From positions 1 through 7,227 of the IMG/VR virus record IMGVR_UViG_2531839586_000020: a stretch of 7,227 nt of DNA; one strand, written 5' to 3'. Every line of letters starts with the position of its first letter. Position 1 is the stretch's first letter. Shown piece after piece: positions 1,776 through 7,227 of the stretch. The stretch comes from a virus. Taxonomy: Duplodnaviria > Heunggongvirae > Uroviricota > Caudoviricetes. The notes below the pieces were generated by a model. The model was not told where the DNA came from, did not search any database, and saw only the letters and a list, made by a program, of their open reading frames with translations. The position numbers and the translations under genes were made by a program.

Positions 1776-4007
1776 GTGCCGTGCGGCGAAAACGTCAGAA
1801 ACGAATGCGGCAGCGTCACAACAATCGCAGCCACTTCTGCATCCCCGCGACCACGAAGCGTCAGAAGCGCCACCTCAGCCCGGGATGCGGCGGCCTCAAA
1901 AGAGGCAGCGAAATCATCAGAAACGAACGCATCATCAAGCGCCAGTAGTGCCGCTTCCTCGGCAACGGCGGCAGGAAATTCCGCGAAGGCGGCAAAAACG
2001 TCCGAGACGAACGCCAGGTCTTCTGAAACGGCAGCGGGACAGAGCGCCTCAGCTGCGGCAGGCTCAAAAACAGCGGCTGCGTCGTCTGCCAGTGCCGCAT
2101 CAACAAGTGCCGGGCAGGCCTCAGCCAGTGCCACCGCTGCCGGAAAGTCGGCAGAAAGTGCCGCATCGTCTGCTTCAACAGCCACAACGAAGGCTGGCGA
2201 AGCCACTGAACAGGCCAGCGCAGCAGCGAGGTCAGCTTCCGCAGCGAAGACATCCGAAACGAACGCGAAAGCGTCGGAAACCCGTGCAGAATCCTCAAAA
2301 ACGGCTGCCGCATCGTCAGCCAGTTCGGCGGCGTCATCGGCATCATCGGCGTCTGCTTCAAAAGATGAGGCGACCATACAGGCGTCAGCAGCGAAGGGCA
2401 GCGCCACGACGGCATCCACGAAGGCGACAGAGGCTGCTGGTAGTGCGACGGCAGCAGCTCAGAGCAAAAGTACGGCGGAATCTGCAGCAACGCGCGCTGA
2501 GACAGCGGCAAAACGGGCAGAGGATATTGCATCCGCCGTGGCGCTTGAGGATGCGAGCACGACGAAAAAGGGGATAGTACAGCTCAGTAGTGCGACTAAC
2601 AGCACGTCTGAAACGCTGGCGGCAACGCCAAAGGCAGTAAAATCAGCCTATGACAATGCAGAGAAACGTCTGCAGAAAGACCAGAACGGCGCTGATATAC
2701 CCGATAAGGGACGCTTCCTGAACAACATTAACGCGGTCAGTAAAACAGACTTTGCTGATAAGCGTGGTATGCGTTATGTGCGGGTTAACGCTCCTGCAGG
2801 TGCAACATCTGGAAAATATTACCCTGTTGTTGTTATGCGTTCTGCTGGCTCAGTAAGCGAACTGGCATCAAGGGTCATTATCACCACGGCAACGCGAACC
2901 GCAGGCGATCCGATGAATAACTGCGAGTTTAACGGATTTGTTATGCCTGGTGGCTGGACTGACAGGGGGCGTTATGCTTATGGAATGTTCTGGCAATATC
3001 AAAACAATGAACGAGCCATCCACTCAATAATGATGAGTAATAAGGGCGATGATTTGCGCTCTGTGTTCTATGTTGATGGCGCTGCTTTCCCTGTTTTTGC
3101 GTTTATCGAAGATGGCCTGTCAATATCCGCACCTGGTGCTGATCTCGTTGTTAATGATACGACCTATAAGTTTGGGGCAACAAATCCGGCGACTGAATGT
3201 ATCGCGGCGGACGTTATCCTTGATTTTAAGAGTGGGCGTGGTTTTTATGAGTCTCATTCGTTAATCGTTAACGATAACTTGTCGTGCAAAAAACTTTTTG
3301 CCACAGACGAAATTGTAGCGCGTGGTGGTAATCAGATTCGAATGATAGGTGGGGAGTATGGGGCATTATGGCGTAATGATGGCGCTAAAACTTACCTGCT
3401 GCTTACCAATCAAGGTGATGTTTATGGTGGCTGGAATACATTAAGACCGTTTGCTATTGATAACGCAACCGGCGAACTGGTTATTGGAACCAAACTGTCC
3501 GCAAGTCTGAACGGTAATGCATTAACAGCAACAAAGCTGCAAACGCCAAGACGGGTTTCTGGTGTTGAGTTTGATGGTTCCAAAGATATTACTTTAACCG
3601 CCGCGCATGTGGCTGCTTTTGCCAGAAGGGCAACGGATACATATGCCGATGCGGATGGTGGCGTTCCCTGGAATGCCGAATCAGGCGCTTATAATGTCAC
3701 CCGCTCTGGCGACAGCTATATTCTGGTTAACTTCTATACCGGAGTCGGAAGTTGCCGGACCTTGCAGATGAAGGCGCATTACAGAAATGGTGGTCTGTTC
3801 TACCGTTCTTCAAGAGACGGTTATGGTTTTGAGGAAGACTGGGCAGAAGTTTATACCTCGAAAAATCTTCCACCAGAAAGCTACCCAGTCGGCGCACCAA
3901 TCCCGTGGCCATCAGATACCGTTCCGTCTGGTTATGCCCTGATGCAGGGGCAGACTTTTACAAATCTGCCTACCCGAAACTTGCAGCCGCTTATCCGTCA
4001 GGCGTGA
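1776..4007 (+). CDS. stf: stf central fragment: longest intact ORF of the disrupted side tail fibre gene (Ala/Ser-rich shaft repeats plus distinct central domain). The ATG at 1776 is probably not a real start
   Basis: 743-codon ORF in frame 3. Contains [24 protein letters not shown]..., [44 protein letters not shown] and ...[21 protein letters not shown], all recalled as Stf-like. The last 16 codons (after about 3960) are out-of-frame read-through. Confidence 0.6.
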
Positions 4008-4585
4008 TCCCTGATATGCGTGGCTGGACGATTAAGGGCAAACCCGCCAGTGGTCGGGCCGTATTGTCTCAGGAACAGGACGGCATTAAATCGCATACCC
4101 ACAGCGCCAGCGCATCCAGTACGGATTTGGGGACGAAAACCACATCGTCGTTTGATTACGGCACTAAATCCACGAATAACACCGGGGCGCATACGCACAG
4201 TCTGAGTGGCTCTACGGGGTCTGCCGGTGTTCATACTCATGGTAATGGTATTCGTTGGCCAGGAGGCGGCGGTTCTGCGTTAGCATTTTATGATGGCGGT
4301 GGGTTCACTTATGTCCAGAATTCACAGTATCAAGTAAGCCCGGAGACTTCTTCCTATAGATCGTATTATCAACGTATTCAGACACAGTCAGCAGGTGCTC
4401 ATACCCACTCGCTGTCTGGTACTGCAGCAAGTTCTGGCGCACATGCACATACTGTAGGTATTGGTGCGCATACGCACTCCGTTGCGATTGGTTCACATGG
4501 ACACACCATCACCGTTAACGCTGCGGGTAACGCGGAAAACACCGTCAAAAACATCGCATTTAACTATATTGTGAGGCTTGCATAA
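3905..4585 (+). CDS. stf: stf C-terminal fragment (His-rich repeat region, receptor-binding / Tfa-dependent tip); the first roughly 18 codons are out-of-frame overlap
   Basis: Frame 2 ORF. From about 3962 it reads [52 protein letters not shown]...GAHTHSLSG...[49 protein letters not shown], matching the recalled lambda Stf C-terminus. Stop TAA at 4583-4585. Confidence 0.6.
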
Positions 4586-5169
4586 TGGCATTCAGAATGA
4601 GTGAACAAGCACGGACCATAAAAATTTATAATCTGCTGGCCGGAACTAATGAATTTATTGGTGAAGGTGACGCATATATTCCGCCTCATACAGGTCTGCC
4701 AGCAAACAGTACCGATATTGCACCACCAGATATTCCGGCAGGCTTCGTGGCTGTTTTCAACAGTGATGAGGCATCGTGGCATCTCGTTGAAGACCATCGG
4801 GGTAAAACGGTTTATGACGTGGCTTCCGGCGACGCGTTATTTATTTCTGAACTTGGCTCGTTACCGGAAAATGTCACCTGGTTATCGCCGGAAGGGGAAT
4901 ATCAGAAGTGGAACGGCACAGCCTGGGTGAAGGATACGGAAGCAGAAAAACTGTTCCGGATCCGGGAGGCGGAAGAAACAAAAAACAGCCTGATGCAGGT
5001 AGCCAGTGAGCATATAGCGCCACTTCAGGATGCTGTAGATCTGGAGATCGCAACGGAGGAAGAAACCTCATTGCTGGAAGCCTGGAAAAAATATCGGGTG
5101 TTGCTGAACCGTGTTAATACAACAACTGCACCTGATATTGAGTGGCCGGAAGAACCAGACACAATGTAA
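4585..5169 (+). CDS. tfa: Tail fibre assembly protein Tfa (194 aa), intact
   Basis: ATG at 4585 overlaps the stf stop (TAATG); RBS GAGG at 4573-4576. Translation [91 protein letters not shown]... is near-identical to recalled lambda Tfa (orf-194) and the same length. Stop TAA at 5167-5169. Confidence 0.92.
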
Positions 5170-5172
5170 GCG

Positions 5173-5219
5173 AAAAAGAAAAACCGCAGACACGACGTAT
5201 GCAGGACGTGCTGCGGTTT
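5173..5219. terminator. GC-rich hairpin between convergent tfa (+) and the minus-strand cassette; candidate bidirectional intrinsic terminator, stronger for the minus strand
   Basis: Stem CCGCAG(A)CACG (5184-5194) pairs with CGTGCTGCGG (5207-5216) around a 12-nt loop. On the minus strand the hairpin is followed by TTTTTCTTTTT (complement of 5173-5183); on the plus strand only TTT follows (5217-5219). Confidence 0.45.
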
Positions 5220-5335
5220 GGCTAGTAAACTTTTGATAGTGCGAGTATTGAATGATTTCCAGCCCATTACTCATTTTACGCTTTTCACGCGCAAGAGAAA
5301 TTGAACTTTATTCCTCTGTCACCACATGACGGGGA

Positions 5336-6094
5336 TTAACATTCTGGATTTTTTATTTCTAAATCAGATAAAGCATTAATTCTTATTTTTTCTAAGGCTT
5401 TATCCATGGCCCCCTTGATTCTGTATCCATAATCATCCGGTTCTTCATATTCCTGTGGGGACGGATTTGTACCAATATTCTCAATTAATTCATTTAAAAT
5501 AACTGTTACTTCTTTATTAAGAAGAACTGCTTTAGTTAACATCATCTCTGTTAATGCTGTGAAGGCTAGGCTAAGTTTCTGTTGTAGCTCTTTATTTTTT
5601 AATTTAAGATCTTCATCGTTTAGTGCTTTATCACGGTCTTCGTGAGCCTGTTGTACTTCATCCCAAAACAGCTTTTCTTGTTCTTGATTAAAATATCCTT
5701 GATAACTATTGGCTACATATGTTGGCATCATGTGAATCTCAATAATTTCAAATTCATTATCAGCCCATTTTTTTATACTAAGTAACTGAGTGTAAATGTA
5801 CTCATACATATCGTACTTTTTTTGCCAGATTTGTTGAGAAATCCACAACTCAGAAGTAATCTTTTTTTCTATATCTTTGATAGTTGTTGTATTTAATGCT
5901 AACTGCTTTCTGAGTATTTCATAGTTAGCGTTGGTAGCAGAAATTTTTGCTTTTTCAGTTATAAAAGAAACAATAAAGTTCACTATGAGAGCTGCAATAA
6001 TAATAGCGAAGCTCAACCCTAAAATCTCTGTGGTTGAGAAATTAGATGACTGTAATGCTTTGATAAGTTCAAAAAACTGTTTTTCTGTGAGCAT
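5336..6094 (-). CDS. Hypothetical single-pass membrane protein (252 aa), AT-rich cargo gene B; function unknown
   Basis: 759-nt ORF in roughly 32% GC DNA (sample counts), where long ORFs are unlikely by chance. ATG at 6094-6092 is preceded on the minus strand by AAGGT about 5 nt upstream. Hydrophobic stretch ILGLSFAIIIAALIVNFIVSFI (residues about 24-45) then a charged, probably helical domain (...EDRDKALNDEDLKLKNKELQQKLSLAF...). No recognisable catalytic motif. Confidence 0.75.
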   Translation of the reverse strand: MLTEKQFFELIKALQSSNFSTTEILGLSFAIIIAALIVNFIVSFITEKAKISATNANYEILRKQLALNTTTIKDIEKKITSELWISQQIWQKKYDMYEYIYTQLLSIKKWADNEFEIIEIHMMPTYVANSYQGYFNQEQEKLFWDEVQQAHEDRDKALNDEDLKLKNKELQQKLSLAFTALTEMMLTKAVLLNKEVTVILNELIENIGTNPSPQEYEEPDDYGYRIKGAMDKALEKIRINALSDLEIKNPEC

Positions 6095-6192: not shown

Positions 6193-7227
6193 TCAAGGGG
6201 GTGAGATTGTAGAGGCGTTACCTTGTTCTATCACACCAGACCTAATCTTATAACTACCAAGGATGTTGACCGTTTTATTATTTTTCATCGCGTCAAAAAT
6301 TAAGCCTATTTCATCAGGATCATTGATAAAACTGGTATCAACATAGATCGGGAATGAATCATCACCTGTTGGCTCATGGCAGCTTAACGTTAGCTTATCG
6401 GCTGAGCGTTTTATACTATCAATGACAACTTCCAATGTTTGCTGCTCTGACTTAGCCTTTTCAATTGGGTTCTTGATGATTTCTTGAACCTGACCTTGCG
6501 AAAGCTCAATATTGCTGGCCCCGCGGATCGTCACTTTGTCTGCATCAGATGCACCTTTAAGAACTCCAGTGTATGCCTTAGCTGTGTGCTCTTGGATACC
6601 TTCGGCGCGCTCTATCGTATCAATACCTTCATGTGCTTTTATTGCAGACAGCATACCATCGCGTAGAATTGTCATCCGCTCGGATTCTGCTCGCTGTTTT
6701 GCTTCTTCCAGTTGTAACTCAATAGTTTTGGTTTCGACTTGTGTCTGATGATCTAAGTAGGACGTACCGACCCATGCGCCGCCTAAAACTAAGACAGCAA
6801 ACAGGAAACACATTGTTTTCTGTCTTGGGCTCATACCTTGCGTTACCTTCTCAAATGCGTTACCAAAGGAATCAATAAGTTCTTTAACTGAGGTGATAAT
6901 TTCTGTGCAGCCAGGATTGATAGTAAAAACCAACTCTGCAGCTTCTCGATCCTCAGCAGTGAGCTTCTGTAAGTTAGAGGTTTTGTACTTGATTAGAGTA
7001 AAAACCTTGTACATCTCAGTTTGAAATTCACAGATACCCTGTGCCAAACTTGCAGGCAGAGTACCATTATACTTATCTTCATCACCAAAAAATTTGAAAT
7101 CAATACTTTCTAAGAAGTTTAACTTCAAATTTTCAATGTGGATTTCTTCGCCTGAAATAACTCGTCCGAAAATATTTTCTATATCATCAATATCATTGAT
7201 TTCATAGGCCTGAATTGCATCTTCCAT
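6193..7227 (-). CDS. Hypothetical membrane-anchored protein (at least 344 aa), AT-rich cargo gene A; function unknown
   Basis: 1035-nt ORF on the minus strand, stop TGA at 6195-6193. The ATG is the last three bases of the window (7227-7225), so the RBS and promoter are not visible and the true start could be upstream. Acidic N-terminal region, one hydrophobic segment MCFLFAVLVLGGAWVGTSY (residues about 139-157, coded about 6757-6813) with basic residues on its N-side (SPRQKT), then a roughly 185-aa C-terminal domain ending ISPP. No Walker, nuclease or other motif recognised. Confidence 0.7.
   Translation of the reverse strand: MEDAIQAYEINDIDDIENIFGRVISGEEIHIENLKLNFLESIDFKFFGDEDKYNGTLPASLAQGICEFQTEMYKVFTLIKYKTSNLQKLTAEDREAAELVFTINPGCTEIITSVKELIDSFGNAFEKVTQGMSPRQKTMCFLFAVLVLGGAWVGTSYLDHQTQVETKTIELQLEEAKQRAESERMTILRDGMLSAIKAHEGIDTIERAEGIQEHTAKAYTGVLKGASDADKVTIRGASNIELSQGQVQEIIKNPIEKAKSEQQTLEVVIDSIKRSADKLTLSCHEPTGDDSFPIYVDTSFINDPDEIGLIFDAMKNNKTVNILGSYKIRSGVIEQGNASTISPP

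Follow-up and report, generated by a model that had tools for sequence, protein, structure and literature searches.

Among the main sites at which E. coli gains accessory genes is the far end of lambdoid prophages; the T3SS effectors of EHEC, the b-region genes of lambda and the AT-rich genes of the viral DNA analysed here (a 7,227-nt stretch, hereafter the window) all lie there. In the window, the tail genes and this cargo are separated by a short intergenic region that contains a GC-rich hairpin, and the question is what this hairpin belongs to and what it does. An earlier note on this DNA had read it as a conserved junction at which lambdoid phages exchange cargo cassettes and, additionally, as a likely convergent terminator. 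We find that the hairpin is the left part of a non-coding element of ~100 nt, which we name E (window ~5178–5281) and which consists of the hairpin and a conserved block of 65 nt. Judging from its sequence, E is rather likely to combine two roles, as a terminator of the leftward cargo operon in the window and as a patch of homology for module exchange.

The hairpin and its setting in the window

The last gene of the late/tail module is tfa (tail fibre assembly; 4585–5169, plus strand), as recognized from the list of open reading frames and from megablast matches to annotated lambdoid phages. Its stop codon (5169) is followed by 14 nt, the hairpin (5184–5216) and another 120 nt up to the stop codon of a convergent reading frame, the AT-rich cargo gene B (5336–6094, minus strand; 252 aa). 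Cargo gene C (6193–7227, minus strand; 344 aa), taken from the same list, lies upstream in gene B's leftward unit, and searches of Pfam and PADLOC found no family for either protein. The 14 nt behind tfa are an A-rich spacer, GCGAAAAAGAAAAA (5170–5183), which on the minus strand reads as a U-run, UUUUUCUUUUUCGC, after the hairpin. The 65-nt conserved block (5217–5281), delimited by alignment, by 171 phage records and by linkage and four-gamete analysis, lies to the right of the hairpin and is followed by the rest of the cargo operon's 3′ untranslated region (5282–5335, minus strand; from the alignment). The first ~25 nt of this last segment weakly resemble the right side of the lambda copy (TTTTTTGCATGAGAGAATTTG versus TTTTCACGCGCAAGAGAAATTG), and a sequence similar to ...TTTTGCATGAGAG is common to the right-flank classes at cargo-type loci, again as a weak resemblance. 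On the other side, the 3′ end of tfa and the spacer travel together with the hairpin as a left module, and the tail-module matches in most phages stop at 5147 by megablast.

The hairpin reads CCGCAGACACG-ACGTATGCAGGA-CGTGCTGCGG and forms a stem of 6 + 4 bp with a single bulged A. It is real, as the earlier note had supposed: its 71-nt context folds with a ΔG of −22.6 to −22.7 kcal/mol (about −17.5 kcal/mol for the hairpin by itself), which corresponds to z-scores of −2.99 on the plus strand and −4.53 on the minus strand, and none of 200 dinucleotide shuffles folded as well on either strand. The stem-loop is therefore as stable and GC-rich as that of a Rho-independent terminator. A simple consensus terminator scan of the window made no call at the hairpin, since a bulge or a loop of this size falls outside its rules, and between gene B and tfa it detected nothing else like a terminator. 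For transcripts of gene B, E is the first such structure that they reach, 55 nt after the stop codon. A promoter scan found no σ70-like site within E.

The base composition had been said to change exactly at the hairpin. The fall in GC content does begin just to its right, and the word 'exactly' proved slightly generous, the fall being complete only by ~5350 (GC of 0.52 in the tail module, 0.48 in tfa, 0.67 in the hairpin, 0.37 at 5217–5281 and 0.315 in gene B).

Distribution and two-part anatomy of the element

We compared the junction (5170–5335) with 50,697 phage records by BLASTN. There were 171 matching records, including lambda, HK97, HK106, HK633, phi80, mEp460, cdtI and many Stx phages, and the similarity was confined to 5178–5281 in all of them, breaking off on both sides. 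The resemblance to the lambda b region to which the earlier note pointed was recovered: positions 24,162–24,240 of lambda (NC_001416) match window positions 5184–5262 with 87.5% identity over 80 nt (expectation value 4e-22). As the note also stated, the lambda copy does not directly follow tfa; it lies 1.6 kb beyond it, between ea47 and ea31. The lambda record has an unlabelled misc_recomb feature at 24,389–24,390, 150 bp to the right of its E copy. In an alignment of the window, mEp460, HK97, lambda and HK633, a single conserved island opens with the hairpin's first base and ends at ...GATTTTAC (window 5281), and the sequences on either side of it are unalignable.

Among complete E. coli genomes, 5,384 of 5,426 carry E, at 14,587 places (median of two per genome, maximum of nine), and no annotation lay under these copies among the matches listed. 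In a species-level genome scan, the natural hosts of E were Escherichia and Shigella. Apparent hosts such as Pseudomonas, Streptomyces and Enterococcus were rejected; their matches lie on short or ~48.5-kb low-coverage contigs with lambda-type sequence, which we take to be lambda contamination. Most lambdoid phages and prophages in Escherichia and Shigella carry E, located at the distal end of their tail-fibre (late) region.

The genes around E vary and their orientation does not, as E always lies downstream of leftward genes (int-att-sib-E in HK97, ea31-E in lambda, ecpE-E in K-12, and likewise in mEp460, UTI89 and PPompW). The commonest order is tail fibre genes, E, a leftward dinI-like gene and a leftward integrase gene. 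E follows the stop codon of the dinI-like gene in 74 of 79 phage loci (partly deleted in one), and in 68 exact matches it begins 23 nt after that stop codon. HK97 has the order tfa, E, sib, attP and int, where E (20,943–21,041) abuts the annotated sib (21,042–21,091), and PPompW_EH1910, a Stx-phage-associated prophage, has the order nleC, E, dinI and prophage end. In many prophages E is the last recognizable phage sequence before host DNA (ydfJ, dacD/sbmC or icd). Cargo lies to the left of E in some cases (ea47 in lambda, nleC, and a ykgJ-like gene in some phage contigs) and to the right of it in others (ea31/ea59 in lambda, genes B and C in the window). The idea that the hairpin marks the boundary between tail module and cargo consequently describes the window, where the cargo is on the right, and is too simple for the family as a whole. 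Because cargo occurs on both of its sides, E is a conserved island inside a variable end region and not one boundary line.

The two parts of E are conserved in different ways. We collected ~150 copies of E with a 28-nt pattern, so that the central 28 nt of E are fixed in this sample by the search itself, and assembled further sets anchored on the hairpin and on the DinI protein. When unique variants were folded one by one, the hairpin was retained in 79 of 81 despite changed sequence, with paired changes in its arms (CCGCAG/CTGCGG becoming CCGTGG/CCACGG, CCGCCG/CGGCGG or CAGCGG/CCGCTG), and in one family of E a wholly different one, GCCGCAGTAACTTGTCATGATAGGATACTGCGGC, takes its place. The block, with the consensus TTGGCTGGTGAACTTTCGATAGTGCGAGTATTGAATGATTTCCAGCCGTTACCGATTTTAC, is better conserved than the hairpin. 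In the hairpin-anchored sample, in which the block was not forced, its central 28-mer had zero to two mismatches in 50 of 76 unique contexts; the remaining contexts are a diverged family or truncated copies. It is therefore the structure of the hairpin and the sequence of the block that are conserved. The window's own block is unusual in having an extra T, GGCTAG and CCCATTACTCA. In IMG/VR contigs, the diverged family reads GGCTGATGGACGTTCGATAGCGCGAGT-TTGAATGAAAATCAGCCGGAGATGATTTTAC, with a 1-nt deletion and a compensatory change in GGCTGG/CCAGCC arms, and truncated copies of E are also found there, with homology ending inside the block.

We rejected a coding role for the block on both strands. 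Two minus-strand reading frames start in E (5025–5267 and 5068–5274), and their ATG is missing from other copies of E (ATCGG for ATGAG). On the plus strand, the frame is broken by two 1-nt indels in the window, and substitutions fall at codon positions 1 and 2.

This pattern of conservation bears on whether E has a function at all. It could be a neutral relic of an ancestral sequence, and lambda b2 deletions that remove the E region are viable. We regard this as highly improbable, since E persists at 80–100% identity amid unalignable flanks, the pairing of its hairpin is kept through many different arm sequences, and E. coli genomes contain 14,587 copies of it.

Flank reassortment and the attachment-site question

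The flanks of E reassort, both left and right, among the ~150 collected copies. In 92 unique contexts of 270 nt we distinguished 35 left-flank and 18 right-flank classes, which occur in 55 combinations. Eleven left classes pair with at least two right classes (up to six), and nine right classes pair with at least two left classes (up to 18). The variable columns of the left flank and the hairpin had a normalized mutual information of ~0.9 with the left class and ~0.3 with the right class, columns beyond the block tracked the right class (~0.9), and these values are inflated by the large number of flank classes. The switch in linkage falls inside the 65-nt block. In addition, all four allele combinations were present at 41 of 78 site pairs within E. 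E accordingly has the properties of a mosaic boundary, with a conserved stretch, non-homologous DNA on both sides, reassorting flanks and recombination inside the stretch. The earlier proposal of a conserved junction with cassette exchange is supported by these data, with the amendment that the unit is the hairpin together with the 65-nt block, not the hairpin alone.

Since ~100 nt are common to phages with unrelated neighbouring genes, E would act as a homology patch at which tail-fibre modules are rejoined with right-hand modules (dinI-int, sib-att-int or cargo cassettes). The reassortment pattern is directly observed; the pathway of the presumed homologous recombination may be Red or RecA. 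Lambda gains DNA from defective prophages, and so forms mosaics, by Red-dependent recombination between stretches that are only 88% identical (De Paepe et al. 2014, PMC3945230).

Alternatively, E could be a site-specific attachment site, that is, the attP of some phages and a secondary attB inside prophages into which integrases insert other phages. Nakamura et al. (2021, PMC8112680) described a 96-bp sequence, 'attB-in-PP_2', that is ~81% identical to the K-12 ykgJ/ecpE intergenic region and adjoins exchangeable effector loci in EHEC prophages, and they found lambda-like phages inserted there, flanked by this 96-bp att sequence. E is very probably the same sequence, and the same as the feature annotated as attP in HK633 (JQ086377, 20,680–20,760, 'similar to non-coding region between ykgJ and yagV'), with sameness judged from size, homology and position rather than base by base. 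E matches the published site in length (~96 bp) and in its similarity to the K-12 intergenic region (~81%), is present in the deposited PPompW and Stx2 phage records of that study, and lies at a prophage end beside exchangeable cargo both in PPompW_EH1910, between nleC and dinI, and in the window and UTI89. In our comparison, window positions 5196–5280 are 83% identical to K-12 304,228–304,311 over 86 columns; E accounts for the part of the ykgJ/ecpE region that is homologous to phages. The 309-bp, 84% extension reported by Nakamura et al. also reappears.

The attachment-site reading also has on its side the HK633 annotation itself and the two direct copies of E that flank cargo in UTI89. Several observations speak against it. 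E lies beside at least four unrelated types of integrase; lambda and HK97 have their attP elsewhere, and the UTI89 prophage is at prfC with its attR beyond dinI. We tested E as the attP of HK633-type phages and rejected it, as homology breaks ~70 or 150 nt to the right of E and not inside it. The homology of HK633-type phages ends near or inside the 3′ end of int, and the real crossover is probably outside the annotated attP feature. The attP label in the HK633 GenBank record is thus probably an over-reading. A search with ARAGORN for a tRNA-derived attachment sequence detected no tRNA, tmRNA or fragment of either at 5000–5500. In the published cases, an ompW-like att sequence of 121 bp remains next to the int of the inserted phage (PMC8112680), which would fit homologous recombination through E better than integrase action. 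Because this att sequence stays beside int and E adjoins unrelated integrases whose att sites are elsewhere, insertion through E by homologous recombination appears to explain the published cases at least as well. We therefore hold a site-specific attachment site to be unlikely.

The UTI89 prophage gives a closer view of two copies. UTI89 and its relatives share the window's right end, and tfa is only a remnant in UTI89; genes B and C are found as a pair at this site in UTI89, NU14 and other E. coli as well, in the position held by ea31/ea59 in lambda and by effectors in EHEC prophages. The order in UTI89 is tfa, E1, the leftward genes B and C, a spacer of ~140 nt, a left-flank remnant, E2, a dinI-like gene, attR and prfC. 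E1 is the window's copy of E. E2 (UTI89, NC_007946; 14518–14616), ~340 nt beyond the window's right end, is in direct orientation and 86% identical to E1, and the 135–230 nt before it share homology with what lies left of E in other phages. The dinI-like gene after E2 carries a LexA box, and attR at prfC lies beyond it. The two copies therefore bracket 2.3 kb of cargo together with 135–230 nt that match the left flank of another phage.

If E were an attachment site, the cargo between these copies would be the remnant of a prophage-in-prophage insertion. The copies differ by 14%, hence they do not represent a fresh duplication, and no link to an integrase was found. The arrangement is what would be expected if two prophage right ends had been joined and then partly deleted; a decayed insertion or a homologous exchange fits it as well.

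K-12 has two copies of E, of which one is at the extreme right end of Qin and the other is solitary, in the ykgJ/ecpE intergenic region. The Qin copy (3501–3604 in the K-12 derivative XL1-Blue) has an IS30 fragment next to it and the truncated ydfJ ~180 nt away. At the solitary copy, K-12 positions 303,869–304,375 (NC_000913), which comprise ykgJ, E and the decayed 3′ part of a dinI-like gene, are shared as one block with phage contigs at 77–90% identity, and the PPompW record aligns to the intergenic region through E into the dinI coding sequence. Because the alignment runs through E into dinI, and because ykgJ-like genes are phage-borne, the K-12 ykgJ/ecpE region looks like a prophage scar (E with a dinI remnant) and not like the source of the phage sequence. 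The direction of transfer would then be opposite to the capture from chromosome to phage proposed in PMC8112680.

Transcript ends, RNA function and comparison with known systems

For termination, the two strands of E differ. On the minus strand, which is read by leftward transcripts, the stem is followed by UUUUUCUUUUU and thus by a U-run. On the plus strand, it is followed by UUUGGCUA, with only UUUGG. Of the 81 variants, 49 have at least five U in the eight positions after the stem on the minus strand, and not one has them on the plus strand. The convergent terminator of the earlier note is thereby reduced to a one-sided one. In the window, E is located at the 3′ end of the leftward cargo operon (gene C, then gene B), where the hairpin and the minus-strand U-run would form a Rho-independent terminator that closes the cargo transcript. 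Termination at E would keep leftward transcription from running antisense into tfa and stf. A literature search on ykgJ with Term-seq found no transcript 3′ ends.

This terminator function is not general to the family. About 40% of E variants, lambda's copy included, are without a U-run on either strand, and termination therefore cannot be the hairpin's universal selected function. In addition, transcription from pL and pR′ of lambdoid phages is antiterminated by N and Q. Given this antitermination, a simple terminator at E would often be ignored during lytic growth.

A different possibility is a role of the hairpin in the rightward late transcript, where it would either terminate the operon after tfa or stabilize the 3′ end against exonucleases. 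The hairpin is 14 nt from the tfa stop codon, it directly follows the last rightward gene in many phages, and its fold is equally stable on the plus strand. An attempt to assign a strand from the asymmetry of G-U and A-C pairs failed, as 39 variants had the more stable hairpin on the minus strand and 42 had it on the plus strand. The missing plus-strand U-run (none of 81 variants; UUUGG in the window) argues against a terminator of late transcripts, and lambda late transcription is in any case Q-antiterminated. Furthermore, the gene to the left of E is leftward in lambda, K-12 and the ykgJ-carrying phages, so that no rightward gene ends there. A role in the late transcript is, in our judgement, improbable.

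Neither termination nor exchange accounts easily for the block. A recombination patch alone leaves purifying selection on 65 nt unexplained, and a function beyond it, at the level of RNA or protein binding, is therefore probably involved. One candidate is a functional minus-strand RNA formed by the block and the hairpin, either cis-acting or a 3′-UTR sRNA derived from dinI or cargo transcripts. [quoted passage not shown] E likewise has ~65 conserved nt at the 3′ end of an mRNA, directly upstream of the terminator hairpin with its U-run that they share and 23 nt after the dinI stop codon (exactly so in 68 of 79 loci), and this block is better conserved than the hairpin. A candidate second helix, GGCTGG/CCAGCC, gains support from one compensatory variant in the diverged family, GGCTGAT/ATCAGCC.

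Several results speak against this RNA. Apart from that variant, changes in the second helix were disruptive as often as neutral or compensatory, and wobble-compatible changes were evenly split between the strands. RNAalifold on MAFFT alignments found no minus-strand consensus helix; it also missed the terminal hairpin itself because the bulge and length variants shift the register, and we used per-sequence folds instead. There is no U-rich stretch before the terminator stem (...CACCAGCCAA), as an Hfq-binding module needs. A search of Rfam 15 gave no family at E, even at expectation values of up to 10. The only real match nearby is IS009 (RF02111), a full-length hit at window 4928–5126 (plus strand; 225 bits against a gathering score of 117) that is wholly inside tfa; this 'sRNA family' appears to model conserved DNA that codes for tail fibre assembly. 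The 3′ UTR of the chromosomal K-12 dinI is unrelated to E, and a homology of E to chromosomal dinI 3′ UTRs or to DinR was considered and dropped, as none was found. Finally, the published sRNAs of EHEC and EPEC prophages that we compared, the anti-sRNAs and PasA/C/D, lie near PR′, Q and the lysis genes and not at E. A functional minus-strand RNA is on balance quite unlikely.

More broadly, the block and hairpin could be an undescribed functional unit, be it a prophage RNA released from dinI or cargo transcripts, for example after SOS induction, or a DNA site that actively promotes recombination between prophages; we offer this as a speculation with a small chance of being right. If true, such a unit would be present in ~99% of E. 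coli genomes, including K-12 (ykgJ/ecpE and the Qin end), where it is currently unannotated. On the preferred reading, as a terminator here and a homology patch for exchange, E gives a concrete substrate to the homologous exchange by which phage mosaics and tandem prophage clusters arise, and it is a candidate insulator or terminator between early/lysogenic and late transcription units. It is also a landmark for cargo cassettes and prophage ends. E has been noticed before under other names; its pan-lambdoid spread, its two-part anatomy and its link to dinI appear to be new to the open-access literature that we searched.

Several known systems resemble E in part. Like ordinary Rho-independent terminators between convergent genes, it has a GC-rich stem-loop and a U-run after the stem, on the minus strand. 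Unlike them, it is one-sided, lacks a U-run in ~40% of variants and is joined to a 65-nt block that a terminator does not need. The lambda sib/tI retroregulation site resembles E in being a non-coding element with RNA structure that follows leftward genes, on att's b-region side; its sequence is not similar to that of E, which in lambda lies 3.3 kb from sib. DinR shares with E a conserved segment and a terminator at the 3′ end of a LexA-controlled dinI, and in the absence of sequence homology this likeness is an analogy only.

E and attB-in-PP_2 agree in length (96 versus ~97–100 nt), in homology to the K-12 ykgJ/ecpE region (81–84%) and in position between effector or cargo genes and dinI. 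The difference is one of scope and origin. PMC8112680 treats the sequence as an attachment site that phages took up from the chromosome, in a few STEC prophages, whereas E has unrelated integrases as neighbours and occurs in lambda, HK97, phi80 and almost every E. coli genome. These comparisons suggest a re-reading in which the published 'attB-in-prophage' site is pan-lambdoid and a prophage scar is what remains in the K-12 ykgJ/ecpE region.

A further parallel is with the boundary or linker sequences of lambdoid phages (PMC3945230 and the modular theory), which, like E, are short conserved stretches between non-homologous modules, with reassorting flanks and internal recombination. Most described mosaic joints are located within genes or at their ends and are not widely conserved non-coding units. 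E differs from them as a discrete, non-coding element with a structurally conserved hairpin, which also occurs on its own in the K-12 chromosome.
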